A stretch of 64,000 bases of DNA from Candidatus Babelota bacterium (GCA_965658655.1 CBFHTA010000001.1:232722-296721); one strand, 5' to 3'; counted from the stretch's first letter, positions 33,042 through 59,354 are shown. The notes: generated by a model from the letters alone, not told the origin. Program-made: numbers and translations.

Positions 33042-35582
33042 ATGATTACCAATATTATTGCCAAAGTCATGGGTACTCAAAATGATAGGGAGCTGAAAAA
33101 GCTACAGCCCCTGGTTGATCAGATTAATAATTTTGAGCCTACAATAAGCGCATTACGCGATGAAGATCTTGCCCATAAAACAAATGAATTTAGAGAGCGT
33201 TTAAGTAAAGATGAAACGCTTGACGATATTCTGCCAGAAGCATTTGCTGTTGTTCGTGAAGCAGCAAAAAGAAAACTTGGCCAGCGTCATTTTGATGTTC
33301 AGTTAATGGGTGGCATAGTATTGCATCAGGGTAAAATCGCAGAAATGAAAACCGGTGAAGGTAAAACATTAACTGCAACATTGCCTCTCTATTTAAATGG
33401 TTTGACTGGAAAAGGAGCTTTCCTTATTACGGTTAATGATTATCTTGCTCGTCGTGATGCTGATTGGATGCGTCCTATTCTAGAGTTTCTAGGATTAACT
33501 GTTGATATTGTTCAACACGATATGAGTGATGAGGATCGTAAAAAAGCTTACGAGGCAGATGTTATTTACGGAACTAATAATGAATTAGGTTTTGATTATC
33601 TTCGAGATAATATGAAGTTTCGCTTAGAAGACTATGTGCAGAATACTTTACCGTTTGCCATTGTTGATGAAGTTGATTCTATTTTGATTGATGAAGCCCG
33701 TACTCCTTTAATTATTTCTGGTTCTTCTGAGCAAGGGGCAAAGCTGTATGAAGCTGCTAATAATGCAGTTAAAAATTTACAGAAAGAAGTTGATTATGAG
33801 GTAGATGAAAAACAAAAAAGTGTATTGTTGACCGAAGCAGGGACCGACAAAGTTGAGGCCTCTTTTGGTGTAGACAACATGTATGCTATTGAAAATTTAA
33901 ATATTCTTCATCATGTTAACCAAGCTTTGCGTGCACATACTTTATTCCGTAAAGATGTTGAGTATATGGTACGAGACAATCAGGTCTTGATTGTTGATGA
34001 ATTTACTGGCCGTGTATTGAGTGGCCGTCGATATAGTGATGGGCTGCATCAAGCGCTAGAAATGAAAGAAGGCGTTGCGGTTGAAAAAGAAAGCCAAACA
34101 CTTGCATCTATTACACTTCAGAATTTTTTCAGATTATTTGGAAAACTTTCAGGTATGACTGGTACGGCAATGACCGAGTCGGAAGAATTTCATAACATTT
34201 ATAAATTAGATGTTGTAGCGATTCCAACTAATAGAACTTTGTTAAGAAAAGATAAGCAAGATCTTATCTTCTTAACAGAAGCAGGAAAGTTTAAGGCAAT
34301 TGTTGAAGACATTCGAGAACGTCATAAAAAAGGTCAGCCAGTTTTAATTGGTACTATTGCGGTTGAAACTTCAGAGCGCTTGAGCCAGGTTTTGCGAGCA
34401 GAAGGGATTCCTCATGAAGTTTTAAATGCAAAACAGCATGAGCGAGAAGCAGAAATTGTTGCACATGCTGGTGAGCCGGGACACATTACGATTGCAACCA
34501 ATATGGCTGGTCGTGGTACTGATATTAAATTGTCACCACAATCTTTAGAGGCTGGCGGATTGTATATTTTAGGAACCGAGCGTCATGAATCTCGTCGAAT
34601 TGATAATCAATTGCGTGGTCGTTCTGGTCGTCAGGGAGATCCTGGAGAATCTCGTTTTTATATTTCATTAGAAGACGAGTTAATACGTGTCTTTGGTGGT
34701 GGAAACTTCGACCTGCGTGACCGAATGAGGTATGCAGGGATGACTGATGATGAGGCAATTGAATCATCTTGGGTATCTGGAAGTATTGAGAGTTCACAAG
34801 AAAAAGTTGAGAAGCATAACTTTGACATTCGTAAACATTTGCTTGAGTACGATGATGTTATGAACCAACATAGAAAAGTTATTTACACATATCGTCGCGA
34901 TATACTTGAGGGTGCAGAACAAATACATGAGCTTGTGCGTGATATGATTATTACGGGTGTTCAAGATGCATTTGCATATATGGTTCCAGACCGTTCTCTT
35001 AATCAAAAGCAAATAGATGAATTATATGAGTTCTTATCTAGAATGACTCATTTAGAAAAATCACTTTTTGAGAAACAACAGTTTAATCTTTCAAATAGTG
35101 ACATTTTGAAAAAAGATATTATTAACTTCTTGCTTGCACAATATGCTTTGTACCGTCAAGGGCAAGAAGAAGAGAAAATTAGTGAAGCAGAGAAATGGGT
35201 TATGCTTGAGACTGTAGATCATGCTTGGAAGCAACATATGTTAAACCTTGATCATTTAAAAGAAGGTATTAATTTACGTAGTTGGGGGCAAAAAAATCCA
35301 TTGATCGAGTATAAACGAGAAGCCTTTCAAATGTTCGAGGAAATGATGGGGCAAATTCGTTGGGAAATTGTTCACAGAATTTTTCATTTAAATACCGCAC
35401 GCTTTAATACGGAAGAAATTGAACGTAAACGCCAAGAAGAGCTTGATGCTCTTCAGATGACTGGTGGCCAGGAGAATAGCTCTGGAGAGCGCGAACCAGT
35501 TCTTCGTGATGAGCCTCGTATTGGGCGGAATGATCCCTGTCCATGTGGGTCGGGTAAAAAACATAAAAAGTGCTGCGGCTAA
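33042..35582 (+). CDS. secA: Preprotein translocase SecA
   Basis: MKTGEGKT, VDEVDSILIDEARTP, QLRGRSGRQGDPG, SEC-C RNDPCPCGSGKK. Confidence 0.99.
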   Translation: MITNIIAKVMGTQNDRELKKLQPLVDQINNFEPTISALRDEDLAHKTNEFRERLSKDETLDDILPEAFAVVREAAKRKLGQRHFDVQLMGGIVLHQGKIAEMKTGEGKTLTATLPLYLNGLTGKGAFLITVNDYLARRDADWMRPILEFLGLTVDIVQHDMSDEDRKKAYEADVIYGTNNELGFDYLRDNMKFRLEDYVQNTLPFAIVDEVDSILIDEARTPLIISGSSEQGAKLYEAANNAVKNLQKEVDYEVDEKQKSVLLTEAGTDKVEASFGVDNMYAIENLNILHHVNQALRAHTLFRKDVEYMVRDNQVLIVDEFTGRVLSGRRYSDGLHQALEMKEGVAVEKESQTLASITLQNFFRLFGKLSGMTGTAMTESEEFHNIYKLDVVAIPTNRTLLRKDKQDLIFLTEAGKFKAIVEDIRERHKKGQPVLIGTIAVETSERLSQVLRAEGIPHEVLNAKQHEREAEIVAHAGEPGHITIATNMAGRGTDIKLSPQSLEAGGLYILGTERHESRRIDNQLRGRSGRQGDPGESRFYISLEDELIRVFGGGNFDLRDRMRYAGMTDDEAIESSWVSGSIESSQEKVEKHNFDIRKHLLEYDDVMNQHRKVIYTYRRDILEGAEQIHELVRDMIITGVQDAFAYMVPDRSLNQKQIDELYEFLSRMTHLEKSLFEKQQFNLSNSDILKKDIINFLLAQYALYRQGQEEEKISEAEKWVMLETVDHAWKQHMLNLDHLKEGINLRSWGQKNPLIEYKREAFQMFEEMMGQIRWEIVHRIFHLNTARFNTEEIERKRQEELDALQMTGGQENSSGEREPVLRDEPRIGRNDPCPCGSGKKHKKCCG

Positions 35583-36631: not shown

Positions 36632-37903
36632 TCAGTTTTCGTCGTCACCATCAAATCTGCTTTTTAAAATCGCTCTTTCTTCTGCTGATAGGCGACCTCT
36701 AATTCCAGCATCTTGTAAAGCGATACCTAAGCAACTGTTAAAAGTTGTAGCGATACCGTCTGCAAATGTTTCATTCATTATCTGTGTAACGCGTGCTCTT
36801 TGATGACCGGTTAGTGTTATGCCGTCTGAAGAACTTGTGTTTCCTCTATTGCCTGCAGGTGGTTCCGGAGGGAGACCGCCTGGGAAAGCATCTGGTGCCG
36901 GAGGAACATTATCATAGTTTGGTGCCGGAGGGAGATCACCTGGTGTACCAGCGCTGTCATCTTCCCAAGGCTCTTCTTGACTATCGTCGCTATTAGAATC
37001 ATATATTATGTCCATTAATCTTTCTTTTTCTTGGTACGCATAATTTCTAAGAACTTCAAGGTCTGCTGGGTTTAGGCCATAACTATCTAAATTAAGATAA
37101 GCACCTGGATTGTCCTGAAGTTCTTCTCTAATCCATTGTTCCCATCTTTGCATTCCAGTTGAATCTAATCGGTCAATAGGTTCAACTGATTCTGCGCCAG
37201 GAGCTTCTCTAACAATTGCAGCTGCTTTGTATGTGTCATGACATGCTTTTAAGTCTCTGCGTGCAAGTTTTGAAACATCATGTCCTGAGTTTCTCAAAAT
37301 TGTTGCAACATCCTCATGCGAGCCTGCCTCAACGCGTTGTCTTATTGTTCTTAGTAGAGCTTCTAGTTTTGTTTTTGAAAGAGGTTTGTTTGATATTGCA
37401 GGTTTACGTGAAGCAGATCCGTCGTGTCCACTAGCCCCAGATGGATGAAGTAGGCGAGCAGGTGGAGGAGGTAGGGTTCCAGTACCAGAGTCACCTTCAG
37501 GTGATGTTGATCTTGCAGGTGTACGTGAAGCAGATCCGTCGTGTCCACTAGCCCCAGATGGATGAAGTAGGTGAGCAGGTGGAGGAGGTAGGGTTCCAGT
37601 ACCAGCGTCACCTGCAGATGATGCTGATCCTGTGGAGGAAGAAGACAATCTTTCGCATGCCTCACTTACACTTTCTCCATATACTTCCTTAAAGCCGCCC
37701 CCTACTCCAGAGTTATCGAGAGTATTGATTGGTTTTTTATATTTTTTAAGGTTCGTACACAGGCTTCTCAGGTTTCTTTCATTTCTTCCTCCTTGATATG
37801 AGGATTTAATTAATTTTTTTGCTTGACTAGATGTTAATCCATACATCGAGAAAGTTGTAGCTGAGAAAGCAAGTAGTATTAAAATTTTATATTTCATAAA
37901 CAA
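36632..37903 (-). CDS. Secreted proline-rich protein with WAVE/SCAR VCA-like motifs
   Basis: Signal peptide; LPPPP repeats; ALLRTIRQ, DVATIL, YDSNSDDSQEEPWED. The CDS is secure; the function is inferred. Confidence 0.7.
   Translation of the reverse strand: MFMKYKILILLAFSATTFSMYGLTSSQAKKLIKSSYQGGRNERNLRSLCTNLKKYKKPINTLDNSGVGGGFKEVYGESVSEACERLSSSSTGSASSAGDAGTGTLPPPPAHLLHPSGASGHDGSASRTPARSTSPEGDSGTGTLPPPPARLLHPSGASGHDGSASRKPAISNKPLSKTKLEALLRTIRQRVEAGSHEDVATILRNSGHDVSKLARRDLKACHDTYKAAAIVREAPGAESVEPIDRLDSTGMQRWEQWIREELQDNPGAYLNLDSYGLNPADLEVLRNYAYQEKERLMDIIYDSNSDDSQEEPWEDDSAGTPGDLPPAPNYDNVPPAPDAFPGGLPPEPPAGNRGNTSSSDGITLTGHQRARVTQIMNETFADGIATTFNSCLGIALQDAGIRGRLSAEERAILKSRFDGDDEN
37396..37629. repeat. 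117-bp tandem duplication (39-aa Pro/Gly/Ser unit)
   Basis: Near-identical copies begin at 37396 and 37513. Confidence 0.92.
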
Positions 37904-37924
37904 TACTCCTGTTTATTTATATTT

Positions 37925-39445
37925 TCAAAAATTGATGAGCAATTTACCGTATACATTCCAACGAGAAATTCCTGCGTTTTGTCTCGAGGTATCAACAGAA
38001 CCACCAACTTCGTAATTTTGAGAAAATTCACCTTCGTTGAAGTAAGCAGCTGAAGCATGGAGTGTACTTAGAATAACGCTTGGATGCGCAGCAGAAACTA
38101 GATTTATGTCACTTTCTTTAATAAAGATATTAGCGTTTGCACCTAGATTTGCTAAATCAAGATTGCGCCCCATTTTACGGTTTGGCATAACTTCTCCAGG
38201 GTTTCCTGCCGGTTCAGACAAGTCTGCAATCATTGGGCCTTCTTTCCATGCGTTAACAAGTTTAACATCTTCTGCTTGGCGGAAGCGATTCATAATCCCT
38301 GCATTAATATTCCAGTTTTTCCCTACTAATGAAACTTGCGTTGCCATTCCCAAAGCAAAACCTGGATTCACCTTAACGTCTTGAGTCATAATGTTAATCC
38401 CGAAGGTTCTTCTGTATGGCACGTCAGCAGTTCCTGCAGCATTACGAGCGGTAGCATTTTCAAACATTGCCAAGTAGCGAGTCCATTGACCGTTGTATAA
38501 ATCAAGGGAGCGTTTTTGTGTGTTTTCAAAAAGATAGTGGCCAGTGAGCGAATTGGTTATCCACCAATTACATGCTTTTGCTTCATGCATGCAGTATTGA
38601 AGCGTATTACCCCAGTCAATACCTGCGTGGTGTCCGTTACCAACCATAGCTTCCCACATATATTCTGCAGTTCTGCGATTACCGGTAGGAATAATAACAC
38701 CTACATATTGGCTTACAAAAAGATCATCTTTGTCAATGGCATTGCGACCAATTCTTATTTTGAGATCAGCCATTCCATCTTTTTTTTGAGTTCCGTCGAT
38801 ACGGCCATATTTTAAACCGGGTTGTCTGAAAGCCTCAAACATATTGGTTTGTGCAAGTAACCTTCTACTTGTGCCTGTTTCGTAAAATGGATTGGCAGTA
38901 GAAGCTCTTTGGTCATCAGCATTTTGTTCAATGATTACTGTTTCTGATAGCCCGACTGATTGCTTAACGTGCACAAAAGGAGCATCAAAGTTTACCCAAT
39001 ATTTTTTGCTGAGTGGGTGGCGATAAGAGATCATAAATCCAAGGGTACTTTGTTTTGGGTCCACTGTAAGCTTAGAGTGGTGAGTGTCTCCTCTTGTTCT
39101 TACATTAAAATCCCTAGCAAGAAGATCTTGGCTTAGGTCTTCTGTGTAACTATCAGGAATATCTTCTTTTACAACAAGCTCTTTTTTGTTGTTGAACAAA
39201 AGGTATTCGCGTAGGTCTTCTCGCCCACTTTGAGTTGTTTTCCCTCCAAAGATAGAGAGAGCGAGTTCGGGCTTTTCTGCCATATGTCCTTTTTCATGCT
39301 CCTGGTTAGTAATAAGTGTATATCCTGTGGTGCTGTAGAGTTCGTAGGTGGGGAAATCAACGAATACACTTTTTCCAGAGATATTTTGTGCATGAGCACA
39401 GGAGTGGAGCAGAATAAGGGCTAAAGCATAAATGCGGTACTTCAT
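37925..39445 (-). CDS. Putative outer-membrane beta-barrel protein
   Basis: Signal peptide; amphipathic strands; ends WNVYGKLLINF. Confidence 0.6.
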   Translation of the reverse strand: MKYRIYALALILLHSCAHAQNISGKSVFVDFPTYELYSTTGYTLITNQEHEKGHMAEKPELALSIFGGKTTQSGREDLREYLLFNNKKELVVKEDIPDSYTEDLSQDLLARDFNVRTRGDTHHSKLTVDPKQSTLGFMISYRHPLSKKYWVNFDAPFVHVKQSVGLSETVIIEQNADDQRASTANPFYETGTSRRLLAQTNMFEAFRQPGLKYGRIDGTQKKDGMADLKIRIGRNAIDKDDLFVSQYVGVIIPTGNRRTAEYMWEAMVGNGHHAGIDWGNTLQYCMHEAKACNWWITNSLTGHYLFENTQKRSLDLYNGQWTRYLAMFENATARNAAGTADVPYRRTFGINIMTQDVKVNPGFALGMATQVSLVGKNWNINAGIMNRFRQAEDVKLVNAWKEGPMIADLSEPAGNPGEVMPNRKMGRNLDLANLGANANIFIKESDINLVSAAHPSVILSTLHASAAYFNEGEFSQNYEVGGSVDTSRQNAGISRWNVYGKLLINF

Positions 39446-42986: not shown

Positions 42987-43420
42987 TCCTGTCCTCAAAA
43001 GCGTTACGGTATAATATTGTACAAAACCAGTATGCGGGTAAGAATACCACATCATTTTTGAGCTCGCAACTTGGCAAAGATTTATTAAAATACTATTTTC
43101 TGTCTTTAAAGGTCCTGGCTAGAGCTTAATCATCATTGATTTGAGCAGCTGGTTTAGGTGATTGTTTTGATTCAACAGGAAGAATCTCTCCAATATAGAG
43201 TTATCTTTATTTCTAAATTACCTTTTTTTGAAGTTTCTAGCATTTTAAAAATTATCTTGAAAGTGGTCAATAAAACTGTACAGAGCGTACCACGTCATTC
43301 AATAGCTTGTAATAAGAGTAAGAGCTATCAAAATTAGCTTGAGTCTGGTATTTTCGATAAAGAAGTGACACATTCATCGGTAAGCATAAGCTTATGGTAT
43401 TGGGTAAGACGGAGAAAAGT

Positions 43421-45130
43421 ATGGTAAATAAAACATTAGGTCAGCTGTTAGTTGAGAGCGGAGCAATTACGGAGGAACAAGCAAGAAAGTTCCAAGAAGA
43501 GGCTCAAAAAGCACACATTCCTTTTGCGCGTTATCTGTATGACAAACACTTGGTAGCAGAAGAATCTATTGCTCAAGCCTATGCAACTATGACTGGTCTT
43601 ACCTTTCTTAACGATATAACAGACGAAATGGCAGATCCGCTTTTATTAGCAAAGGTACCTCTTAAGTTTTTGCGCGAGAACAGAGTGATTCCTATTAAAG
43701 ATAAAGGCACTTCTCTAGTTACCGCTAACCCTACAGACTTTTCTCCTGTTGATGAACTTCAATTACTTTTTGGTAATGATGTAAAGATTGTAATCTCTAC
43801 TCCCAAATCTATTCTTGATGCCCTTAATCATTATTATCCGCTTGAGGGTACCGACGAAATGATGGAAGATCTGGAGAAAGACGGTGATGCAGCAGATCTC
43901 TCTTTTGCAGACATTGACGAGAAAGACATTTTAAGTAGTGCCAACGATGCGCCTATTATTAAATTAGTTAACTATATTCTTTTTCAAGCAGATAAAATGA
44001 ATGCATCTGATGTGCACGTTGAACCTGGAGAGAAAGAAATTAGAATACGTTTTAGAGTTGACGGCCGCATGCACCAATTCATGACAGTTCCTAAAAGAAT
44101 GGAGGGCGCTGTTGCTTCTCGTATTAAAATTATGTCGAATTTAAACATTGCAGAAAAACGTAAACCTCAAGATGGGCGTATTGAAATTCGTATTGGTGAC
44201 AAACGTATTGATCTTCGTGTTTCTTTTTTACCAGCGGTATATGGAGAAAGCGTTGTTATGCGTCTACTTGATAAAGACAAAGGGTTTTCTGAGTTAGACA
44301 ATCTTGGTTTAAGTAAGCGAGACTACGAAGTAGTTACCCAAAGCATTGCTCGACCTAACGGAATATTCTTGGTGTCTGGGCCAACCGGTTCTGGTAAAAC
44401 TACCACGCTGTATTCTATCTTGAGTCGCATTAATGTTCCTACGGTTAATGTTATTACGGTAGAAAACCCGGTTGAGTATCAGTTGCCTGGTATTACACAA
44501 GTACAAGTAGACCCTAAAGTAGACTTAACCTTTGCCAGCGCGCTTCGTGCAATTTTACGTCAAGATCCAGACATTGTAATGATTGGTGAAACACGAGACC
44601 AAGAGACAGCACAGATTGCTATTCAAGCAGCATTAACTGGTCATTTAGTGTTAACAACCATTCATACTAACGATGCTCCTTCTATTATCACTCGTTTAAT
44701 AGACATGGGCATTGAACCGTTTTTAATTGCCTCTTCTATTGTTGCTGGTATGGCGCAACGTTTGGTTCGTAAACTCGACCCTGCATGTAAAGAAGCATAC
44801 AAACCATCAGAAGAAGTACTTAAAAGTTTAGGCATGGATCCGGCAAAGAACAAAAACGTTACCTTCTACCGACCAAAAGGGTGCAAGGAATGTAATATGA
44901 TGGGGTATAAAGGTCGGCTTCCAATCTTTGAAGTTATGGACCTGACAGACTCTATCGCAGATCTTACTATGGCCCGAGCAGCTACACTTAAAATTAGGCA
45001 GCAGGCACAAAGAGATGGTATGACCACATTGCTTGATGATGGTATTAAGAAAATAAAAGAAGGCTTGACGAGTGTAGAAGAGGTTGTTTCTGTAGCAACT
45101 GTTTTTGATAATCCCGCAGATTCTGAATAA
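43421..45130 (+). CDS. gspE: Type II secretion/pilus assembly ATPase GspE/PilB
   Basis: ASDVHVEP, PQDGR, GPTGSGKTTT, LRQDPD, GHLVLTTIH; ATG at 43421 after GGAG (ORF from 43394). Confidence 0.95.
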   Translation: MVNKTLGQLLVESGAITEEQARKFQEEAQKAHIPFARYLYDKHLVAEESIAQAYATMTGLTFLNDITDEMADPLLLAKVPLKFLRENRVIPIKDKGTSLVTANPTDFSPVDELQLLFGNDVKIVISTPKSILDALNHYYPLEGTDEMMEDLEKDGDAADLSFADIDEKDILSSANDAPIIKLVNYILFQADKMNASDVHVEPGEKEIRIRFRVDGRMHQFMTVPKRMEGAVASRIKIMSNLNIAEKRKPQDGRIEIRIGDKRIDLRVSFLPAVYGESVVMRLLDKDKGFSELDNLGLSKRDYEVVTQSIARPNGIFLVSGPTGSGKTTTLYSILSRINVPTVNVITVENPVEYQLPGITQVQVDPKVDLTFASALRAILRQDPDIVMIGETRDQETAQIAIQAALTGHLVLTTIHTNDAPSIITRLIDMGIEPFLIASSIVAGMAQRLVRKLDPACKEAYKPSEEVLKSLGMDPAKNKNVTFYRPKGCKECNMMGYKGRLPIFEVMDLTDSIADLTMARAATLKIRQQAQRDGMTTLLDDGIKKIKEGLTSVEEVVSVATVFDNPADSE

Positions 45131-45267: not shown

Positions 45268-46416
45268 TTAATTAGATTGATCGATATGGCGTGATTCTTC
45301 AGCAGCTGCAGCAGCAGGACCGGTTGAAGATTCCTCTTCATCTTTACTTTCATAGGGATAAATGAATGTATCGAGTTTTTGATTTATGTTCTCTGTACCG
45401 CATGAAGGGCATCTTAGAGGGCCTCGGTTGTTACTTTTCCATGTTGTAAATGCATCTTCTCCTACAAAGTTAAGGCAACAGCTTAGATAGTGTAAAGATT
45501 GGTCTTTTTTAAAAGACTCTAACATAATAGGACACGTGGATTGTTCTTTAATAGTATGTTGTTTGAGGATTGTTTTGATCTGATCGTTCCTTGTAAGTTG
45601 GTATGCATTTCTTCTTTTAAGATCAACTCTTTTATAGGGTGCTCCATTTTCTAGCAAAAATTTTACAATGGTATGCTTTCCGGCATAGCAGGTTAATCCA
45701 AGAGGTGTTGTTTTTGTTCCATCAGGAGATGTTGCACCATCTTTGATATCGGCTCCGTTTTCTAGTAAAAATTTTGCAACAGTATGGTTGCCATTATAGC
45801 AGGCTAATCCAAAAGGTGTTATTTTTGTTCCATTAGCATATGTTGTACCATCTTTGATATCGGCTCCGTTTTCTAGTAAGAATTTTGCAATATCATACTT
45901 ACCTTGAGAAGAGGCTAATCCAAAAGGTGTTGTTTTTGTTTTATCAGGAGATGTTTCACCGTTTGTGATATCTGCACTATGTGTTAATAATAAACCTACA
46001 ATTTCTAGTTTGTTGTTTCGTATTGCTATGCTAAGAGGGCTTGTTATCATTCCATTCTTATAAATAGAACCTGTTTCTAGATTAACTCTGTTTTTTAATA
46101 GAATGCTTACTATCTTAGAATGACCATAACGGCATGCTTCAGCAAGAGGCGTTGTTTGTTCATCTTCACTAATAAAAGTTGGTTCATTAATTGGTGTTTT
46201 CTCTTTTATTAATTTTTCTACAGTATCTATATTTCCTGATTGACAAGCTGTTACCAGTGATTTTAAGGCAAAATCTTTATCAATTTTTATTGATGCAGCT
46301 TCTTGATTACTGTTCTCTCTAGAAAGTTCACTTTTTTTATCATCAGGATTTCCTGTAAAAATAGACCCTGCATGTAAAAGAGCAAAAGAAAGGAATAGTA
46401 GTTTTTTGGTTTTCAT
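45268..46416 (-). CDS. Secreted ankyrin-repeat protein with C-terminal RING/U-box-like domain (copy A)
   Basis: Signal peptide; 37-aa ankyrin repeats; CPIMLESF..LSCC.NF..W..CPSC. Confidence 0.88.
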   Translation of the reverse strand: MKTKKLLFLSFALLHAGSIFTGNPDDKKSELSRENSNQEAASIKIDKDFALKSLVTACQSGNIDTVEKLIKEKTPINEPTFISEDEQTTPLAEACRYGHSKIVSILLKNRVNLETGSIYKNGMITSPLSIAIRNNKLEIVGLLLTHSADITNGETSPDKTKTTPFGLASSQGKYDIAKFLLENGADIKDGTTYANGTKITPFGLACYNGNHTVAKFLLENGADIKDGATSPDGTKTTPLGLTCYAGKHTIVKFLLENGAPYKRVDLKRRNAYQLTRNDQIKTILKQHTIKEQSTCPIMLESFKKDQSLHYLSCCLNFVGEDAFTTWKSNNRGPLRCPSCGTENINQKLDTFIYPYESKDEEESSTGPAAAAAEESRHIDQSN

Positions 46417-46460
46417 CTTGTATCTCCATTTTAATACTATATCATAAATTTATAATTCTA

Positions 46461-46488
46461 ATTGTAATATATTTAGCATATTTGTCAA
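46461..46488 (-). promoter_or_regulatory. Putative sigma70 promoter of copy A
   Basis: TTGACA-16 bp-TACAAT. Confidence 0.6.
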
Positions 46489-46578
46489 TCGGCTATTTAA
46501 GCTTAAATAATACGTTTAGGGAAGTTTTGGTTGCAGAGTAAAGAATTGGCTTTGAGCTTAAGTGAGCTTGTTTAGCTA

Positions 46579-47862
46579 TCAGTGCTCTTTGAGATCTGAG
46601 GATTCTTCTTCATCTTTACTTTCATAGGGATAAATGAATGTATCGAGTTCTTGATTTATGTTTTCTGTACCGCATGAAGGGCAGCTTAGAGGGCCTTGGT
46701 TGTTACTTTTCCATGTTGTAAATGTATCTTCTCCTACCCAGTCAGAGAATTCTTCAGCGCCTGTAAAGTTAGAACAGCAATTTAGAAAGTGTAATTCTTC
46801 GTCTTTTTCAAAAGAAGATAAACGAATAGGGCATGTGGATTGTTCTTGAATAGCACGTTTTTTAATGAGTTCTCTAATTTGGTTCTTATTAATTTTTTGA
46901 TCTTCACTATCTAGTTGATATGAATGAGCTACTTGATATGCATTACGGTCTTTAGATGTAACTCTCTTAAAAGAAACTCTTGGGTCATCAAGTAATGTTT
47001 TTACAGTATCAACATAACCCTCTTCAGAGGCAAGACTAAGCGCGGTCACTTGTTTTCCGTTAGGATAAGCATAAGCAAAAGCATTAGGTTCAATTCTTTG
47101 ATTAGTAAGTAATGCTTGTACCGTAGCGGTACGGCCGTTATAAGAGGCAAGGCCAAGTGCGGTTATTCCTACTCCAGAAGTATTGATAAACTGATAAGCT
47201 GTGGCGTTAATTCTTTTGTCACCAAGGAGTGCTTTTGTAGCATCAGTATGGCCGTTTTGACAAGCAAATCCAAGAGCCGTCGCTTGTGCTCCATTAGGAT
47301 TCATATGCTGATACATTGTGGGGTCAACTCTTTTGTCACCAAGGAGTGCTTTTGCAATATCAGTATGGCCTTTTTCACAAGCTAAACTAAGTGCGGTCAG
47401 TTTTTTTCCTTTAGGATGAGCATAAGCAAAAGCATTAGGTTCAATTCTTTTGTCATCAAGGAGTGCTTTTGCAATATTAGTATGGCCTTTTTTGGTAGCA
47501 AGGCCAAGTGCGGTCATTTGTACCCCACTAGGATAAGTAAACTGAAAAGCATTAGGTTCAATTCTTTTATCAGCAAGTAGTGTTTTTACAGTGCTCATAT
47601 AGCCTTCTTGAGTAGCAATGCCAAGCGCAGATATGTGTATTCCATCAGGTTCCGTTATTAATATATTGGGATCAAAGTCAAAAGACCCATTAAGTAGGCT
47701 TTGTATAGCTTTTATATCCTGGTTTTTACAGGCTTCAATAAACTTTATTTGATTGTGCATAGTTGATTTATCTGCACTTCCTGCATAAGAGTTATTGTCA
47801 CTTGTAAAAATACAACCTGTGTACACCAAAGATAATCCAAAAAGAAGTAAGTTTTTATTCAT
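46579..47862 (-). CDS. Secreted ankyrin-RING/U-box-like protein (copy B, chimeric)
   Basis: Signal peptide; 39-aa ankyrin repeats; CPIRLSSF..LNCCSNF..W..CPSC. Confidence 0.88.
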   Translation of the reverse strand: MNKNLLLFGLSLVYTGCIFTSDNNSYAGSADKSTMHNQIKFIEACKNQDIKAIQSLLNGSFDFDPNILITEPDGIHISALGIATQEGYMSTVKTLLADKRIEPNAFQFTYPSGVQMTALGLATKKGHTNIAKALLDDKRIEPNAFAYAHPKGKKLTALSLACEKGHTDIAKALLGDKRVDPTMYQHMNPNGAQATALGFACQNGHTDATKALLGDKRINATAYQFINTSGVGITALGLASYNGRTATVQALLTNQRIEPNAFAYAYPNGKQVTALSLASEEGYVDTVKTLLDDPRVSFKRVTSKDRNAYQVAHSYQLDSEDQKINKNQIRELIKKRAIQEQSTCPIRLSSFEKDEELHFLNCCSNFTGAEEFSDWVGEDTFTTWKSNNQGPLSCPSCGTENINQELDTFIYPYESKDEEESSDLKEH

Positions 47863-47868
47863 TATAAC

Positions 47869-47946
47869 CTTTATTAATATGATATTATTTTGTGTGATAA
47901 CATTTTTAATTTAGTTATCACACAAAATAATATCATATTAATAAAG
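47869..47946. repeat. Perfect 33-bp inverted repeat with 12-nt loop
   Basis: 47869-47901 is the exact reverse complement of 47914-47946. Confidence 0.95.
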
Positions 47947-47962
47947 ATAAAAAAGTTTCAGA

Positions 47963-50071
47963 TTAATCAATATCCATAACTGGCTCATCATCCATAACTG
48001 GCTCACCTGAGGATTCTTCTTCATCTTTACTTTCATAAGGATAAATGAATGTATCGAGTTCTGTTGGTATGTTTGGTTTTTGGCATGCAGGGCAAATGAC
48101 AGTACCATGATATCGCATTCTTTGTCCTACCCAGTCAGAGAATCCTGCAGTGCCTGTAAAGTTAGAACAGCAATTTAGAAAGTGTAATTCTTCGTCTTTT
48201 TCAAAAGGCGCTAAAGTAATAGGATCTTCGGATTGTTCTTGAATAGCACGTTTTTTAATAAGTTCTTTGATTTGATTTTTATTAACTTTTTGATCTTCAC
48301 TAGTTGCTGGATATGCATTAGCTATTTTGTATGCATTATGTCCTGCAGATGTAACTCTCTTAAAAGAAACTCTTGGGTCATCAAGTAATGCTTTTATAGT
48401 ATTAATATGACCATTTATAGAGGCAATACCAAGTGCAGAAAACTGCCTTCCGTCATCGCCCTTCATCGCAACAGCATTAGGTTCAACTCTTGGGTCAGCA
48501 AGTAACGCTTGTGCCAGAGCAGCACGATCATAACGAGCAGCAAGGCCAAGTGCAGTGGTTTGTGATCCATTAGGAAAAGTAGCCTGAAAACCATTAGGTT
48601 CAACTCTTGGGTCAGCAAGTAACGATTTTATAGTATTAATATTACCATTTATAGAGGCAAGACCAAGTGCAGAAAAATCCCTTCCTTTATCGTCCTTAAT
48701 CGCACAAGCATTAGGCTCAACTTTTGGGTCAGCAAGTAACGCTTGTGCCAGAGCAGCACGGTCATAACGAGCAGCAAGGCCAAGTGCAGTGATTTGTGAT
48801 CCATCAGGAAAAGTAGCCTGAAAACCATTAGGTTCAACTCTTTCATCAGCAAGTAATGCTTGTGCCGAAGCGGTCTGGTTTGCGATAGAAGCAGCTCCAA
48901 GTGGGGTGACTTCTGCTTTATATTTTGTCTGCGCAACAGCATTAGGTTTAATTCTTTCATCAGCAAGTAATGCTTTTACCGTATTAATATGACCATTTTG
49001 AGAGGCAATAGAAAGTGCTGTATGCCTTGTTCCTTGAGGATCAATAATTAAAGAATTGGGGTTAGTTCTTTCATCAGCAAGGAGTGCTTTTACCGTATTA
49101 ATATGACCATTTTGAGAGGCAAGGCCAAGTGCCGTATGCCTTCTTCCTTGAGGATCAATAAAGGACAAAGAATTGGGGTTAGTTCTTTCATCAGCAAGGA
49201 GTGCTTTTACAGTAGCAACATGACCTTTTTTAACAGCAAGGCCAAGTGCCGTATGCCTTTTTCCTTGAGGATCAATAAAGGAAAAAACATTGGGGTTAGT
49301 TCTTTCATCAGCAAGGAGTGCTGTTACAGTATCTGTATCACCTTTTATAGAGGCAATGCCAAGTGCCGCCTGTTTTCTTCCATTAGAAGCAATTCCGGAA
49401 ACAGCATTAGGGTCAATTCTTGGGTGAGCAAGGAGTGCTGTTACAGTATCTGTATCACCTTCTATAGAGGCAATGCTAAGTGCTGCATGTTTTGTTCCGT
49501 TAGGATCAATAAAGGAAAAGGCGTTAGGGTCAATTCTTCGGTCAGCAAGGAGTGCTTGTACAGTAGCAGTACGCCGATTTTGACAGGCAATACCGAGTGC
49601 ATTACATTGTGATTGGTTTTTATCAAGATATTGATAAGCGTTAGGGTCAATTCTTCGGTCAGCAAGGAGTGCTTGTACAGTAGCAGTATGGCCATTTTGA
49701 GAGGCAACACCGAGTGCGGTAAGCTGTGTTCCATTAGGATGAATAGATTGATAAACTGTAGGGTCAATTCTTGGGTGCTTAAGGAGTGCTTGTACAGTCG
49801 CAGTATGGCCGTGACGAGAGGCCACACCAAGCCCAGACACTTGTATTCCATCAGGTTCCATTATTAACATATTGGGATCAAAGTCAAAAGACCCATTGAG
49901 TAAGCTTTGTAGAGCTTTTATATCCTGGTTTTTACAGGCTTCAATAAACTTTATTTGATTGTGCATAGTTGATTCATCTGCACTTCCTGCATAAGGGTTA
50001 TTGTCACTTGTAAAAATACAACCTGTATACACCAAAGATAACCCAAGAAAAAGTAGGCTTTTAACTTTCAT
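47963..50071 (-). CDS. Secreted ankyrin-RING/U-box-like protein (copy C)
   Basis: Signal peptide; about 14 ankyrin repeats; DPITLAPF..LNCCSNF..W..CPAC; ATG at 50071 after GGAGA. Confidence 0.88.
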   Translation of the reverse strand: MKVKSLLFLGLSLVYTGCIFTSDNNPYAGSADESTMHNQIKFIEACKNQDIKALQSLLNGSFDFDPNMLIMEPDGIQVSGLGVASRHGHTATVQALLKHPRIDPTVYQSIHPNGTQLTALGVASQNGHTATVQALLADRRIDPNAYQYLDKNQSQCNALGIACQNRRTATVQALLADRRIDPNAFSFIDPNGTKHAALSIASIEGDTDTVTALLAHPRIDPNAVSGIASNGRKQAALGIASIKGDTDTVTALLADERTNPNVFSFIDPQGKRHTALGLAVKKGHVATVKALLADERTNPNSLSFIDPQGRRHTALGLASQNGHINTVKALLADERTNPNSLIIDPQGTRHTALSIASQNGHINTVKALLADERIKPNAVAQTKYKAEVTPLGAASIANQTASAQALLADERVEPNGFQATFPDGSQITALGLAARYDRAALAQALLADPKVEPNACAIKDDKGRDFSALGLASINGNINTIKSLLADPRVEPNGFQATFPNGSQTTALGLAARYDRAALAQALLADPRVEPNAVAMKGDDGRQFSALGIASINGHINTIKALLDDPRVSFKRVTSAGHNAYKIANAYPATSEDQKVNKNQIKELIKKRAIQEQSEDPITLAPFEKDEELHFLNCCSNFTGTAGFSDWVGQRMRYHGTVICPACQKPNIPTELDTFIYPYESKDEEESSGEPVMDDEPVMDID

Positions 50072-50108
50072 TTTGATCTCCATTTTAAATATTTTTATTA
50101 TAATTCTA

Positions 50109-50138
50109 ATTGTAAATAAGCGATATGGTCGTTGTCAA
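50109..50138 (-). promoter_or_regulatory. Putative sigma70 promoter of copy C
   Basis: TTGACA-18 bp-TACAAT; flanks shared with the copy A promoter. Confidence 0.6.
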
Positions 50139-50335: not shown

Positions 50336-53056
50336 ATGCGTAATTTTCGTTTACTGTCAAAAATAGTTTTATCTCTTTTTCTAGGTCTTTTCTTGGCTTT
50401 GGCATGGTTTCAATTTGATGAACGATTTATTGCGCTCGCAAATAGTGGTATGGAAAAAGTTTTTGAAAAACAGTTGAATTGTCAATTTAAAGGAAAGGTG
50501 GTTCGAGTAAATCCGTTTTTATTAACCATTCATTTTGAAGATGTACAAGTAGAACCTTTTGATATGAGTAATAACTGGTCTTGGAGTGTTGCTCAAATGA
50601 CCATGAAGCTTTCATTTCTTGAGTATCTTTACTACGGTGCTTTTGGGCTACACGTAAATCTTACAACATTGCATTCCTTCTCTGGGCTCAAAAAAAATGG
50701 TGTTCCTATGGTAAGCGATCATTTGCTAGATCTTTTTGCAGGAGCTAACTTTAGTGTGCCCATTTCATTTCAAACAGTTGCAATTGTTGATGGTTCGTTA
50801 CTTGTTGACGATGTTGATAGAAAAGTTTCATTCATATGTCATTGGAATAGTAATGCAGGGAAAGCGGGCAGAGATTTTAAGTCTAAGTTTTATCTTTCAG
50901 ATACCTCTTTAACGTTAGATAATAAAAAAATATTTGAGCAATTTAGTGGACAAATAACATTTGATGCTTTGCATGGCAATGCGTTTATTAGGATGGCAAC
51001 CGATGCTATGTTTATGTTGCCGCAGTTACCAGAAGATCAACGAGATTGTTACGTTCTTGGTTCTTGGGATAAGAATGCAGGAAGCTTTGTGGTTTACAAT
51101 CAAGATAGAACATTGTCCTTTGTTCCTATTGAATTGGTGATGGGTAAAAAGGGTCTGTTGGTGAATGCTGAAGGGGTGATTTTATTAGAATATTTAAAGC
51201 GATTTTTTTATCCGCATATATCACAAACACTTAAGGGCATGGGTTACTTAAAAGTTTCTGGAGATCTTAACGGATCGTTGCAGACAAAAGTGCGTATGCA
51301 AGATGTGGGTTATGGTAGTTATTTGTTAGATGAATTGTATGGTGATGTAATGCATGTTTCTTCTGAATGGCGTGGCTCAATTGGTGCCACTAAAAATAAT
51401 GCTGCAGTAACTGGTACATGGTGGTGGTCTGATAGTGTTAAACAGGGAGTAGTACAATTGGTTAATAGAAATACCTTACCTTTTTTAACAAGTACTTATT
51501 GGCAGACTTTGCCAGGAAGAACTGCGCTGCAGATTGTATTTAAAAACGATGGTAATGGTAAATTAGAGTATGTTACACAGCTTGCGCATAAAAAAACTGA
51601 GCATACTGTAAACAGTTCAGGTACGGTGACACATACGAATACCACCATTAAATGTAGCGGATCAGTGGGAGACAACACTTATACAGCAACGGTAAATACC
51701 AAGCCGATGTGGCTAAAGTCATTTATATATGCCAATGGTGCCAAGAAGAAATTGATCACTTTAACTACTAATAAACAAAATAAATTTTCTTTGTCTTTTG
51801 ATTATGATGCTGCCCAAATGTTTGCGCTTGATTGGTTAGATCTTGATCTATATGGGCAAGGAGTTTTTGATGTTTCAGGTTGTATGGAATTTCCTAAATT
51901 TGTGGGAACACTTTCCTTTAAGAATGGAACTATTCGTCCAGCAGGGATGTATAATTTTATCTCAGATATTACAGCTCGATTTATTGGTGATGTTAATAAA
52001 AAAGAATGTAGTATAAAAGATACACTTATTACACTTCATCAAGGGAAAATAGTAAGTGACAAAATTTCCTGCTTCTTTAACGATGATGGTTCAGTTTATG
52101 GATTGCATAGTCCATTTAGGTTTGAAAGTTGTTTTTTAAATTGGAGTAAATACTTATACGCTATTTGTACCGGGAGCTTTGTGCTTCAAGTTGGATCGGG
52201 GGTAGAGAATGCTCTTGATGGATTCCTTGTGTTTGAACGTTCACAATTTAAAGAAAATATCTTTGCTCTTCAGACACAAAAAAGTGCAATTAACGCTTTA
52301 CCAAGACAACATGCTTTAAGTTCTTTATCTTTAAACCTTGGAGTATCTACGCAGGCTCCTTTACTTGTGTCTACACCTCATTTACAAACACAGGCAATTT
52401 TAGATTGGTTTTTAACTGGAAAATTAGGTGCTCCAGAGTTGCAAGGATCATTGCAATTAAAAGGTGGAAAACTGGTATTTCCTGGACAAACATTGGCTAT
52501 TTCTCAAGGTAAGCTTACGTTTGCTCCTACGCATTCTGAAGATCCTCTTCTTGATTTAACAGCACAAGCGCGTATTAAAAAATATTTGGTAACCATGAAT
52601 ATTGGTGGAACCATTAAAGAACCGGAAGTTCTTTTACAAGCAACACCAGGGCTTTCTGAAGAGCAAATTATTATGTTACTACTGACGGGAAGTGAGCAAG
52701 AATCTTTTAATATTATGGTTCCATCGCTGGTTATGCGTAACCTAGAAACTATTCTTTTTGGTCCATCAAAAGCGTTGGGCCATGCTTCGAACACGCTTTC
52801 CTCTTGGTTAAAGCCTTTAGAAAAAGTAACGTTTGTACCTCGATTTAATGATCAAACAGGAACGGGAGGCTTTAAGGGAGTGCTTGAGGTAGAAGTAAGT
52901 AAGCGATTGCGCGCAGTTCTGGAGAAAGACTTTAGTTTGGCAGAAGATACTGCGGCAGAAATAGAGTATCTTGCTTCCGATGATGTAAGTTTTAAAGTTA
53001 ATAGAGATGAGCGTGGCGATATTGGCGCTGAGGTAGAGATGCGATTTAAATTTTAA
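50336..53056 (+). CDS. tamB: TamB/AsmA-like (DUF490) protein
   Basis: N-terminal TM; beta-rich body; DPLLDLTA..GTIKEPEV..PGLSEEQIIMLLLTG; ends RFKF. Confidence 0.85.
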   Translation: MRNFRLLSKIVLSLFLGLFLALAWFQFDERFIALANSGMEKVFEKQLNCQFKGKVVRVNPFLLTIHFEDVQVEPFDMSNNWSWSVAQMTMKLSFLEYLYYGAFGLHVNLTTLHSFSGLKKNGVPMVSDHLLDLFAGANFSVPISFQTVAIVDGSLLVDDVDRKVSFICHWNSNAGKAGRDFKSKFYLSDTSLTLDNKKIFEQFSGQITFDALHGNAFIRMATDAMFMLPQLPEDQRDCYVLGSWDKNAGSFVVYNQDRTLSFVPIELVMGKKGLLVNAEGVILLEYLKRFFYPHISQTLKGMGYLKVSGDLNGSLQTKVRMQDVGYGSYLLDELYGDVMHVSSEWRGSIGATKNNAAVTGTWWWSDSVKQGVVQLVNRNTLPFLTSTYWQTLPGRTALQIVFKNDGNGKLEYVTQLAHKKTEHTVNSSGTVTHTNTTIKCSGSVGDNTYTATVNTKPMWLKSFIYANGAKKKLITLTTNKQNKFSLSFDYDAAQMFALDWLDLDLYGQGVFDVSGCMEFPKFVGTLSFKNGTIRPAGMYNFISDITARFIGDVNKKECSIKDTLITLHQGKIVSDKISCFFNDDGSVYGLHSPFRFESCFLNWSKYLYAICTGSFVLQVGSGVENALDGFLVFERSQFKENIFALQTQKSAINALPRQHALSSLSLNLGVSTQAPLLVSTPHLQTQAILDWFLTGKLGAPELQGSLQLKGGKLVFPGQTLAISQGKLTFAPTHSEDPLLDLTAQARIKKYLVTMNIGGTIKEPEVLLQATPGLSEEQIIMLLLTGSEQESFNIMVPSLVMRNLETILFGPSKALGHASNTLSSWLKPLEKVTFVPRFNDQTGTGGFKGVLEVEVSKRLRAVLEKDFSLAEDTAAEIEYLASDDVSFKVNRDERGDIGAEVEMRFKF

Positions 53057-58292: not shown

Positions 58293-59354
58293 TTGAAGAA
58301 AAAATTAATTTCGTTTTTAGTGTTCGGTGCCTTTCTTTCTCTTAAGGCGGAATTTGTTGCATTTAAAAAATTTATAAATACAGAAACTGGTAAAACTGTT
58401 TATATGTTATATGACATTCACGTTTCTTTAGAAGTGAGTCCTATCTCTCGTGAGGTGTTTATGAGCCATAAGGGTCAGATTCAAGAACAGATGAGAGTAT
58501 TATCTTTGCAGATAATAAAAAATTACCGAAATAAAAAACTTACGGAATCTCAAAAAGAAGAATTAAATGAACCACTGGAGCAAGAAAAACAAATGCTGGC
58601 TAAGAAATATGCCGAACTTTTTAGAAGAAAACATCTTCCCAGTTTATATAAGCAACAAAGGGAATTACTTGCGTTAGTTAAGCGGTGTGGTTTGTCTTTA
58701 GTAAATGAAGATTGGAGAGATCAAACATTAGATGTAGATTATGATGCAAATGCAGGAAAAGATCTGCAATTTTTACTTGGAAACAAGATTTATCGAGAGT
58801 CTATGAGGTCTTCTGTAACTCCTATGCAAGGAATAGGTGAAAAATTAGTTGGTAACTACACAGAGAACAAGCTCGTGTTAGTTCCAGGGTCAGAAGACGC
58901 TTATTACTATAATGTAGAGACGCGATTAGGAAGTAGTGTAGATCCTTCAGATGGAGCAGGAGCAGTTGATAAGCAGATTATGAAAGGCGTTAAAAAAATA
59001 CTTGAAGATAAGGATAAAAAAGCAGTTATTGTTTCTGTAGGGGCTTCTCATGGGGGACGTATTTCAGAAATATTAACTAAAGAAAAAGGGTATATAGGTC
59101 ATGATTTGAAAATTAACTCAGGGTTAATTGGTTGGTTTTCTCCAGCGAAACTAAAGGGTATTGTTAAATCTTTAAAAGAGAATAAAGAGCCAGATCTAAC
59201 AAACATAGAAACTTCTATTCAACGCAGATTCGCTTCTTATCCTATTGACTTGTTTCGCATCTTTTCAGAAGAACTACCTACATGTAAGTTGTCTACCGAC
59301 TCTCTTGGAACATTTGAGCATGAAATAAGTAGTTTTATAAAAAGTTTTTTTTAA
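58293..59354 (+). CDS. Secreted protein, possible TraB/TIKI/EreA-like fold
   Basis: TTG start after AAGGAG; YMLYDIH, LVNED, VIVSVGASH. Confidence 0.7.
   Translation: MKKKLISFLVFGAFLSLKAEFVAFKKFINTETGKTVYMLYDIHVSLEVSPISREVFMSHKGQIQEQMRVLSLQIIKNYRNKKLTESQKEELNEPLEQEKQMLAKKYAELFRRKHLPSLYKQQRELLALVKRCGLSLVNEDWRDQTLDVDYDANAGKDLQFLLGNKIYRESMRSSVTPMQGIGEKLVGNYTENKLVLVPGSEDAYYYNVETRLGSSVDPSDGAGAVDKQIMKGVKKILEDKDKKAVIVSVGASHGGRISEILTKEKGYIGHDLKINSGLIGWFSPAKLKGIVKSLKENKEPDLTNIETSIQRRFASYPIDLFRIFSEELPTCKLSTDSLGTFEHEISSFIKSFF

Follow-up and report, generated by a model that had tools for sequence, protein, structure and literature searches.

Tandem leader-bearing ankyrin proteins of a Babeliales bacterium with a zinc-ligand-depleted, probably RING-derived C-terminal domain: candidate adaptors for the host ubiquitin system

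The question raised by a stretch of 64,000 nucleotides (nt) from a Candidatus Babelota bacterium (GCA_965658655.1, CBFHTA010000001.1:232722-296721; hereafter the window, at its full length) is what is done by the products of three tandem genes on its minus strand, each of which encodes a hydrophobic leader, an ankyrin array and a C-terminal cysteine domain that recalls a RING finger with several of its zinc ligands replaced. Dependentiae parasitize protists, occur widely and have hardly been cultured; what is known of their handling of the host comes only from gene inventories. An original prediction, made from the sequence alone, took the three proteins to be secreted candidate ubiquitin ligases (E3s) with a degenerate RING/U-box domain, encoded beside the type II secretion gene gspE. 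Our analysis leads us to read them, with a probability of roughly 50%, as exported, ankyrin-targeted, RING-derived adaptors for the ubiquitin system of the host.

Results and Discussion

Three paralogous genes with a common plan

The three open reading frames (ORFs; genes 1, 2 and 3, encoding P0001, P0002 and P0003; Table 2) lie between gspE and a tamB-like gene, and their products share an N-terminal leader, an ankyrin array, a C-terminal cysteine domain and a 17-residue tail, LDTFIYPYESKDEEESS, which is identical in all three and beyond which the acidic ends diverge. The C-terminal pattern [C/D]PIxLxxF..LH.L.CC.NF..W..CP.C is likewise present in every copy, and the tandem with its shared pattern and identical tail is borne out by both the ORF listing and the alignment. 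Pfam Ank_2 recognizes the arrays at E values of 2.5e-31, 1.5e-28 and 4.4e-59 (genes 1, 2 and 3), and motif counts together with the DNA period (111 nt for gene 1, 117 nt for the other two) give 6, 7 and 14 repeats; of the 6, 8 and 14 originally counted, the values for genes 1 and 3 stand and that for gene 2 becomes 7. The start of gene 3 is ambiguous, in that the position formerly taken as the end of the trio, 50071, is the second in-frame Met of the ORF, the first lying at 50083.

When the C-terminal 94 residues of gene 2 were searched against its own genome (4 contigs totaling 928,713 bases; completeness 95%), they retrieved the other two copies with E values of 2.1e-38 and 1.3e-33, a kinship far beyond chance, and the genome contains exactly these three. 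Gene 2 is a mosaic, or recombinant, of the other two: its 3' 146 nt (46597-46742) are 94% identical to gene 1 (45325-45470; repeat family D6), and the adjoining 300 nt (46729-47028) are 85% identical to gene 3 (48122-48421; repeat family D5). As a result of this join the gene 2 domain holds both versions of the Trp segment, with a 9-residue insertion that duplicates the Trp helix (..FSDWVGEDTFTTW..). The mosaic may be taken as a sign of ongoing gene conversion in the cluster, and the trio appears to consist of recently duplicated, recombining paralogues in a Dependentiae (Babeliales) parasite of protists. Among the paralogues the ratio of nonsynonymous to synonymous substitution rates (dN/dS) of the C-terminal part is 0.40-0.68, and for this reason the domain appears to be constrained, but loosely. 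A 40-nt AT-rich repeat with 73% identity lies upstream of the gene 1 start (46422-46461) and again across the first start of gene 3 (50076-50115), and is probably a duplicated ribosome-binding and promoter region.

Descent of the C-terminal domain from RING fingers of the order

Direct matches of the domain to sequence libraries are weak, and it is relatives within the order that tie it to RING fingers. A profile made up solely of the window trio matched P0007, from a same-family genome (G007), at an E value of 4.9e-10, and this protein carries CGVC..CC....H.HC..C.HC, or 7 of the 8 RING ligand positions; the same profile matched, at 4.1e-5, a leader-bearing protein of 173 residues from genome G021, in which CPITL..C.H..CPIC (CPITL..CRH..CPIC) represents site 2 only. 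An ORF of a third genome, G034, is a fully canonical RING-H2 finger that passes the Pfam cut-off at 36.9 bits. In hhalign comparisons a degenerate core of six members gave 97.8% against the G007 protein, 91.4% against that of G021 and 56% over 23 columns against that of G034. A hidden Markov model (HMM) of the core, built without canonical sequences and run against 1401 six-frame ORFs from 53 loci, placed RING ORFs in all of the top 22 ranks, 10 of them at E < 0.01 and with alignments that span the RING core, the first decoy following at 0.61. The alignments of Pfam zf-RING_2 to the three isolated domains cover nearly the whole model. Against PDB sequences the three-row profile gave no matches at E <= 10, and matches at 1e-5 (RMR1, MEKK1, RNF13 and ZNRF3) appeared only with two more canonical relatives in the profile. 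The hhalign scores and the ranking by the core-only HMM agree with the AlphaFold model and with the Foldseek and VIA-align comparisons described below in pointing to a degenerate RING-type domain, as had been proposed, and taking sequence and predicted fold together we consider it very probable that the domain descends from a RING and has kept its fold.

The family itself is very small and its reach narrow, since it counts four true relatives outside the genome. With the three-sequence profile, an HMM search run exhaustively over 1.84 billion representative proteins returned six at E <= 0.001, namely P0002 itself, the four relatives P0004-P0007 and P0008 (9.1e-4, 11 stretches), a tandem-repeat protein of 960 residues that was dropped as spurious. 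When the last 110 residues of P0002 were put through a word-indexed homologue search, the query was the only one of 38 candidates to pass, and scans with the core alignment gave 98 pattern matches in genome contigs and 167 in viral contigs, none of which was confirmed. Scores in the ESM Atlas for residues 280-360 of P0001 were all <= 0.85 (0.9 required), many of the rows being viral RING clusters, and serve as a lead only. Also dropped were the weak matches of the first search for relatives other than the G034 RING-H2 (short or stop-interrupted frames, or unlike ORFs), a 735-residue ORF on contig C8 of G021 that was read by eye as a helicase-type ATPase, and an ORF of G027 read by eye as ending in a zinc finger.

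The wider distribution of RING proteins was surveyed in 261 genomes of Babeliales, of which the 260 other than the bacterium's own measure 0.5-1.8 Mb; passages of a genome study describe small, host-dependent genomes as typical of the phylum, and these sizes fit (PMC4776705). A nine-row profile, which includes two more canonical members, matched 62 of the 261 genomes at E <= 0.001, and 47 of the 189 with completeness of 90% or more and contamination of 5% or less. The extracted RING ORFs pass a heuristic leader rule in 22 of 28 cases, and among the six that fail are a split gene and an ORF in which the rule detects no leader after any in-frame Met. By these counts, leader-bearing RING proteins appear to be a common and recurrent theme of the order. 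The bacterium's own genome holds one outside the window, a canonical RING-H2 at G000:C1:18657-18851 (locus L124), where a 247-codon stop-to-stop frame has the leader MKKLLLVGFLLTLF... and the pattern CLIC..CKHVFH..C..CPTC; it is conserved in a same-genus genome (G001:C28, L125) and is the likely intact counterpart of the degenerate trio.

Zinc ligands and the surface for the ubiquitin-conjugating enzyme

Ligand positions were read from an alignment (A5) of the window proteins with 25 canonical relatives of the same order (Table 1). Zinc site 1 (C1, C2, C5 and C6) is lost, as the original prediction had it, for C1 is C/C/D in genes 1/2/3 and the other three positions are occupied by non-ligands in every copy. 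Site 2 (C3, H4, C7 and C8), which had been described as kept, retains three of its four ligands: its cysteines stand, and the canonical His4 is gone. The Ile after C1, the helix Trp and the Pro of C-P-x-C, which we take to be contacts for the ubiquitin-conjugating enzyme (E2), are present in all three proteins at the positions that had been named.

Table 1. Residues of the window proteins at the eight RING zinc-ligand positions (alignment A5).
Position	Gene 1 residue	Genes 1/2/3	25 canonical relatives
C1	C295	C/C/D	C in 25/25
C2	M	M/R/T	C in 24/25
C3	C314	C/C/C	C in 25/25
H4	N316	N/N/N	H in 24/25
H5/C5	G	G/G/G	H in 20/25, C in 3/25
C6	A	A/E/G	C in 24/25
C7	C336	C/C/C	C in 25/25
C8	C339	C/C/C	C in 25/25

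What remains of the site is strongly patterned within the family. C3, C7 and C8 are invariant in all seven members, and so are two residues that set the family apart: His48, five residues before C3, is present in 7 of 7 core members and in none of the 25 canonical relatives, and Cys52, directly before C3, in 7 of 7 and in 2 of 25. That both are invariant and specific to the family suggests a rebuilt site rather than decay, and either the family-specific His (H-x3-CC) or the vicinal Cys may replace His4 and complete a single C-C..C-x2-C zinc site.

The domain does not fall readily into any of the named classes. The eight-ligand cross-brace pattern C-x2-C ... C-x-H-x2-[CH]-x2-C ... C-x2-C is absent from the window proteins and the zf-RING_2 scores stay below the Pfam cut-off, which places the domain outside the RING family by strict criteria. 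It differs from the zinc-free U-box in that C3, C7, C8, the extra Cys and the His are invariant in 7 of 7 members, only site 1 being U-box-like; because three zinc cysteines persist, and because the U-box (PF04564) does not figure in the Pfam listing of the three C-terminal pieces at E <= 10 (HMMER filters drop most matches above about 0.1), we do not class it as a U-box. In SP-RING domains C-x-H and a C-terminal Cys pair form the single zinc site, and the domain is not an SP-RING/MIZ domain either because this His is missing, its position being Asn in 3 of 3.

Predicted fold

From a 32-row alignment of the 7 core members and 25 RING domains of the order, AlphaFold predicts a beta-beta-alpha core (predicted local distance difference test, pLDDT, 84.6; predicted template modeling score, pTM, 0.72) made up of an N-terminal helix, strands at 46-50 and 55-58, a Trp-bearing helix at 59-68 and a C-terminal C-x2-C knuckle. 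The best Foldseek rows against the PDB were the RINGs of BRCA1/BARD1, Pirh2, APC11, TRIM69, TRIM32 and RNF38, with E values of 6.5e-3 to 0.07 and probabilities up to 1.00. VIA-align, run against 48,161 chains, ranked Slx1 first at Z 7.1 in a list that extends down to 4.5, with TRIM25, Rad5, Ring1b, TRIM69, LubX U-box 1, TRAF5/6, RBBP6, HRD1, a rice U-box, CHIP and Ufd2 between 6.2 and 5.0, and by their titles nearly all of its rows are RING, U-box or SP-RING proteins. A RING/U-box fold had been expected, and RING, U-box and SP-RING chains are what a model of pLDDT 84.6, albeit one from a RING-dominated alignment, has matched. A homodimer prediction for the RING-like domain with two zinc ions (score 0.13, mark 0.42) is neutral on dimerization. 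The RNF38 rows from Foldseek include an entry entitled 'linchpin mutant R454Y'.

Leaders and the route of export

Each N-terminus is Lys-rich and positively charged and is followed by an uncharged hydrophobic stretch of 15 residues; the leader heuristic accepts all three of these proteins and none of four cytosolic controls taken from the window, and a putative Sec-type leader precedes the ankyrin array in all three, as had been claimed. The putative cleavage sites, IFT/G and IFT/S, are not clear-cut. Lipoprotein leaders were considered and rejected, the Cys being Ser in gene 1 and unconserved (Ser or Phe) in relatives; the PROSITE lipobox rule moreover disallows Tyr three residues before the Cys, and Tyr is found there.

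The genome carries a set of type II secretion genes comprising one T2SSE gene over the cut-off (gspE), one T2SSF gene and two secretins, and also SecA; a search of it for VirB4 gave no match, and no dedicated translocation signal or injection system was found. By elimination, type II secretion is a plausible export route. We judge it probable from the leaders, as recognized by the heuristic rule, that the trio is exported from the bacterium, and slightly favor the view that it acts in the host cytosol. Both expectations have parallels in the phylum: the Babela massiliensis report names type II secretion as the only secretion system detected, predicts signal peptides in 79 out of 126 ankyrin proteins and takes these to be secreted into the amoeba, and reads one RING-finger protein as a potential E3 (PMC4378268), and passages of the Chromulinavorax report put a signal sequence on 78% of ankyrin proteins (PMC6561590). 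In the window itself, a 362-residue protein that combines a long array of leucine-rich repeats with an N-terminal leader (29276-30364, plus strand; LRR_8 E 2.7e-101) may be another eukaryote-like repeat protein that is exported.

A candidate adaptor for the host ubiquitin system

The sequence of events that we envisage would begin with the Sec-type leader taking the protein across the inner membrane. After release from the bacterium, the ankyrin array, which varies in length, would bind and hold a host protein, and the C-terminal domain would engage a host E2 through the retained Ile, Trp and Pro surface, so that the proteins would serve as ubiquitin-ligase-type adaptors of uncertain strength. 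By descent the domain very probably goes back to the canonical RING-H2 fingers that many leader-bearing Babeliales proteins carry, with site 1 gone as in a U-box and the His of site 2 lost. The E2 partner would have to come from the host, because none of the 261 Babeliales genomes gave a UQ_con E2, in a search that lacked a positive control, the control genomes having no match either.

That missing control is one of a number of results that weigh against this interpretation. Among the ligand positions only 4, 4 and 3 of 8 survive in genes 1, 2 and 3, with Asn in place of His4 throughout. C8 is followed by G/G/Q in genes 1/2/3, as opposed to Arg in 20 of 25 relatives; this Arg is presumably the linchpin that primes the E2-ubiquitin conjugate, and where it is missing ligase activity may be weak or absent. 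The 9-residue insertion in the Trp helix of gene 2 counts on the same side. The Pfam gathering cut-off for zf-RING_2 is 27.3 bits, and P0001 reaches 16.8 bits as a whole protein and 20.0-20.2 bits as an isolated domain (E 8.3e-4), the isolated domains of P0002 and P0003 scoring 12.1 bits (E 0.24) and 14.6 bits (E 0.042), while the core relatives P0004-P0006 have zero RING matches in Pfam. The core-only profile of six rows obtained seven matches among PDB sequences, none of them significant (the MEKK1 RING at E 0.065, T-cell-receptor chains at 0.17). As to the fold, AlphaFold reached an unusable pLDDT of 40.2 from the three window sequences only, and the better model is biased toward a RING by the 25 canonical RINGs among its 32 rows; in the PDB all Foldseek matches fell short of E <= 0.001, and VIA-align peaked at Z 7.1, which is middling by the tool's own grading (Z < 8). 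Taking these points into account, the retention of E2-dependent ligase activity by the RING-like domain would be our guess somewhat less often than its loss.

Many of the same observations would be expected if the domain were a pseudo-RING, with the fold kept and no activation of the E2-ubiquitin conjugate, which would act as a binding or structural module, for example by binding or blocking an E2 of the host, by pairing with one of its RINGs, or by capping the ankyrin array. Half or more of the zinc ligands are gone, including His4, the residue after C8 departs from the usual Arg, gene 2 has an insertion in the helix region, and a dN/dS of 0.40-0.68 is relaxed for a catalytic module. Yet all three proteins retain Ile, Trp and Pro at the conserved RING surface, the family-invariant His48 and Cys52 adjoin the remaining site, U-boxes function without any zinc, and Q, K, G or S also follows C8 in the other 5 of the 25 canonical relatives. 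A precedent exists in the RING-like domains of alpha-COP with replaced zinc ligands, according to the abstract of the report on them (PMC4678705), and on balance we regard a pseudo-RING as rather unlikely.

An adaptor that works on host ubiquitin must leave the bacterium, and the leaders could instead be signal-anchors or periplasmic signals of envelope proteins that act in the periplasm or at the cell surface of the bacterium itself. The leader is of the Sec type only, with no translocation signal or injection system (no VirB4) to accompany it, and two of the three leaders have a Cys near the end of the hydrophobic stretch. This Cys is, however, unconserved, ankyrin repeats and RING domains have no known partner in a bacterial periplasm, E2 matches number 0 in the 261 genomes, and the leader-bearing ankyrin proteins of Dependentiae isolates are read as secreted in two reports (PMC4378268, PMC6561590); we hold an envelope role to be very unlikely.

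If the trio is instead exported as we propose, the modifier handled could still be SUMO or another ubiquitin-like protein, with an SP-RING-like ligase engaging an E2 of the Ubc9 type rather than the UbcH5 type. The single-site architecture is like that of SP-RING domains, which have one zinc site at RING site 2 and a zinc-free first loop, and weak resemblances exist in both HMM and structure comparisons: P0001 has a sub-threshold Pfam match to the Rtf2 RING-finger (E 0.017-0.05), the G021 relative has one to zf-Nse (E 0.0076), and VIA-align lists the Nse2 SP-RING chains 2yu4 (Z 4.8) and 7qcd_C (Z 5.0). In addition, Babela has a family of Ulp1-like desumoylase homologues according to its genome report (PMC4378268). 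The zinc-site His that Siz/PIAS and Nse2 proteins use is nevertheless absent, the window proteins have no Pfam zf-MIZ or zf-Nse match, the SP-RING rows stand below many ubiquitin RING and U-box rows in VIA-align, and the domain goes back to plain RING-H2 fingers of the order, which find ubiquitin E3s (RMR1, RNF13 and ZNRF3) as their best matches among PDB sequences, so that a SUMO-type ligase is scarcely to be expected.

The gspE neighborhood

The last alternative concerns the location of the genes, which the original prediction had taken as a sign of a link to type II secretion. The Pfam T2SSE domain identifies gspE at E 8.2e-135, and the gene is convergent with gene 1 across a gap of 137 nt. 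For comparison, 24 related Dependentiae loci around GspE relatives were used, the closest relatives with named records (55-68% identity) being labeled Candidatus Dependentiae, Babeliales, Babeliaceae or candidate division TM6, with few generic or other labels. Tblastn with the three proteins and a search with the RING-like HMM, each extending 6 kb from gspE, found ankyrin or RING-like genes in 0 of 24 loci. The conserved gene order is yraN-bamD-gspE-tamB-pld-rluD, and 10 of the 24 loci have, 84-1270 nt past the GspE match, the start of a TamB match whose alignment opens within the first 81 residues; in the window the gspE-to-tamB gap is 5.2 kb and is filled by the three genes. Only the same-genus genome among the relatives has an ankyrin gene beside tamB: there pld-tamB is followed by a divergent ankyrin gene whose C-terminus, starting ..SDPISTEPF.., lies at the contig end, and gspE sits at the start of a different contig. 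From these comparisons the cluster is best read as a genus-level insertion into a conserved housekeeping gspE-tamB block, and because of this, and of the 0 of 24 loci that share it, the adjacency of gspE is incidental and mute on function. A dedicated set of substrates co-organized with the type II ATPase, to which the short distance and the status of gspE as the sole T2SSE gene over the cut-off would have lent themselves, is largely refuted by the synteny and by the scatter of the other type II genes (Table 2), and is extremely improbable.

Comparison with known systems

The closest relatives of the domain are the canonical RING-H2 proteins of Babeliales, which share with it profile homology, a leader combined with a C-terminal RING, and the CPI.LE.F..D..L, Trp and C-P-x-C elements. 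They differ in generally keeping the eight ligand positions (H5/C5 is H in 20 and C in 3 of 25, the others 24-25 of 25) and, in 20 of 25, the Arg after C8, and in mostly having no long ankyrin arrays, whereas the window family keeps three or four positions and adds an invariant His and a vicinal Cys.

With U-box E3s (CHIP, Ufd2 and Prp19, and the bacterial LubX and NleG) the family has in common the loss of zinc site 1 and, by prediction, the retained fold, and VIA-align matches include LubX U-box 1 (4wz3_B, Z 5.6; 4wz0_A, Z 5.2), CHIP (5.0-5.3), Ufd2 (5.1) and Prp19 (4.7). U-boxes, however, have no zinc ligands at all, whereas the window family keeps three site 2 cysteines. LubX and NleG offer a further likeness in being bacterial proteins that mimic a host E3. 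Such U-box and RING mimics are well known, RavN of Legionella being another, and LubX of Legionella and NleG of enterohemorrhagic Escherichia coli reach the host through type IV or type III injection systems; in the genome studied here no such system was found by the search, which was for VirB4 only. NleG is treated as a bacterial U-box/RING-type mimic in the abstract of a report on it (PMC2891834).

XB3/XBAT-type eukaryotic E3s resemble the trio in joining N-terminal ankyrin repeats to a C-terminal RING, and have complete RINGs and no Sec leader. They show no significant sequence match to the window proteins, and the G021 relative matches RING_XB3-XBAT31 below threshold (E 0.0026, 18.2 bits, cut-off 50).

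Within the phylum, the idea of exported ankyrin proteins and a RING-type E3 is already in print. Babela massiliensis (Pagnier et al. 2015, PMC4378268) has ankyrin proteins with signal peptides that are taken to be secreted, a RING finger regarded as a potential E3 and type II secretion regarded as the export route, and the passages of that report covered here describe neither an ankyrin-RING fusion nor a ligand-depleted RING. More broadly, an ankyrin array fused to a ligand-depleted RING was not found for this phylum in literature searches or in the passages of Dependentiae reports that were covered. The fusion suggests a role for some of the ankyrin proteins of Dependentiae, which would be to bring host proteins to the ubiquitin machinery, and the trio is probably a set of tools for tampering with that system in the host.

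The order also holds natural RING/U-box intermediates, with which one could test how far RING function depends on zinc coordination. A bolder proposal is that it preserves, step by step, a path from RING to a U-box-like domain (8/8 ligands in G034, 7/8 in G007, site 2 only in G021 and 3-4/8 in the window) in which the zinc site was rebuilt with the vicinal Cys-Cys or the upstream His, and that the outcome is an active, ankyrin-targeted E3 exported by Sec and type II secretion. This combination seems unlikely to us; if true, it would define a structurally new RING/U-box E3 sub-class and a delivery route not established for E3 mimics.

Gene features and minor observations

Table 2. Coordinates of the three genes, their parts and the neighboring and secretion genes (window positions unless a contig is given).
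Feature	Position	Strand	Basis or remark
Gene 1 (P0001, 382 residues): leader, 6 ankyrin repeats, RING-like domain, acidic tail	45268-46416	-	ORF; Ank_2
Gene 1 leader, residues 1-21, MKTKKLLFLSFALLHAGSIFT	46354-46416	-	15-residue hydrophobic stretch, mean Kyte-Doolittle 2.02; heuristic
Gene 1 ankyrin array, about 6 repeats of 37 residues, 111-nt period	45643-46269	-	Pfam; DNA repeat period (family D7); motif count
Gene 1 RING-like core and conserved tail, residues 292-357	45346-45543	-	alignment A5; AlphaFold model; fold matches
Gene 2 (P0002, 427 residues): leader, 7 ankyrin repeats, RING-like domain with duplicated Trp-helix segment	46579-47862	-	ORF
Gene 2 leader, residues 1-20	47803-47862	-	leader heuristic
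Gene 2 ankyrin array, about 7 repeats of 39 residues, 117-nt period	46969-47757	-	Pfam; DNA repeat family D2; motif count
Gene 2 RING-like core and tail, residues 341-415	46618-46842	-	alignment; ligand table
Gene 3 (P0003, 706 residues): leader, 14 ankyrin repeats, RING-like domain, Asp at C1	47963-50083	-	ORF; alternative start 50071
Gene 3 leader, residues 1-25 from first Met	50009-50083	-	leader heuristic
Gene 3 ankyrin array, about 14 repeats of 39 residues	48368-49963	-	Pfam; DNA repeat families D2 and D4; motif count
Gene 3 RING-like core and tail, residues 617-685	48029-48235	-	alignment; ligand table
gspE	43394-45130	+	Pfam T2SSE
tamB-like gene	50336-53056	+	
gspF	1842-3056	+	T2SSF; 40 kb from gspE
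Two secretins	G000:C1:179820-180281 and 184248-184721		about 50 kb upstream of window
SecA	33042-35582		

The extreme C-termini of P0003 (window 47963-47980) and of P0004-P0007 are alike (..VMDID, ..IPDID, ..IHDID and ..LPIDL), and genes 1 and 2 have no such ending. The G007 protein terminates in ..LDDEL, which is reminiscent of a KDEL-type retrieval signal. On the minus strand of contig C6 of the same genome (locus L005), an ankyrin ORF of 424 residues with a leader (1692-2966) overlaps a RING ORF of 140 residues (1297-1719) that has 7 of 8 ligands, a split that is due either to a frameshift or to an assembly error, and another leader-bearing ankyrin gene, RING-free, comes next. Genome G211 has three RING-domain ORFs of 561, 612 and 724 residues within 4 kb (RING matches at G211:C23:4857-5057, locus L019, and at 6847-7047 and 8594-8788), which indicates that tandem RING expansion is not unique to the window. 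Finally, 13 of the 32 scanned ORFs of the window, all of at least 214 residues, match no Pfam family at E <= 1e-5, among them those at 619-1752, 3420-6506, 36632-39445 and 58293-59354.

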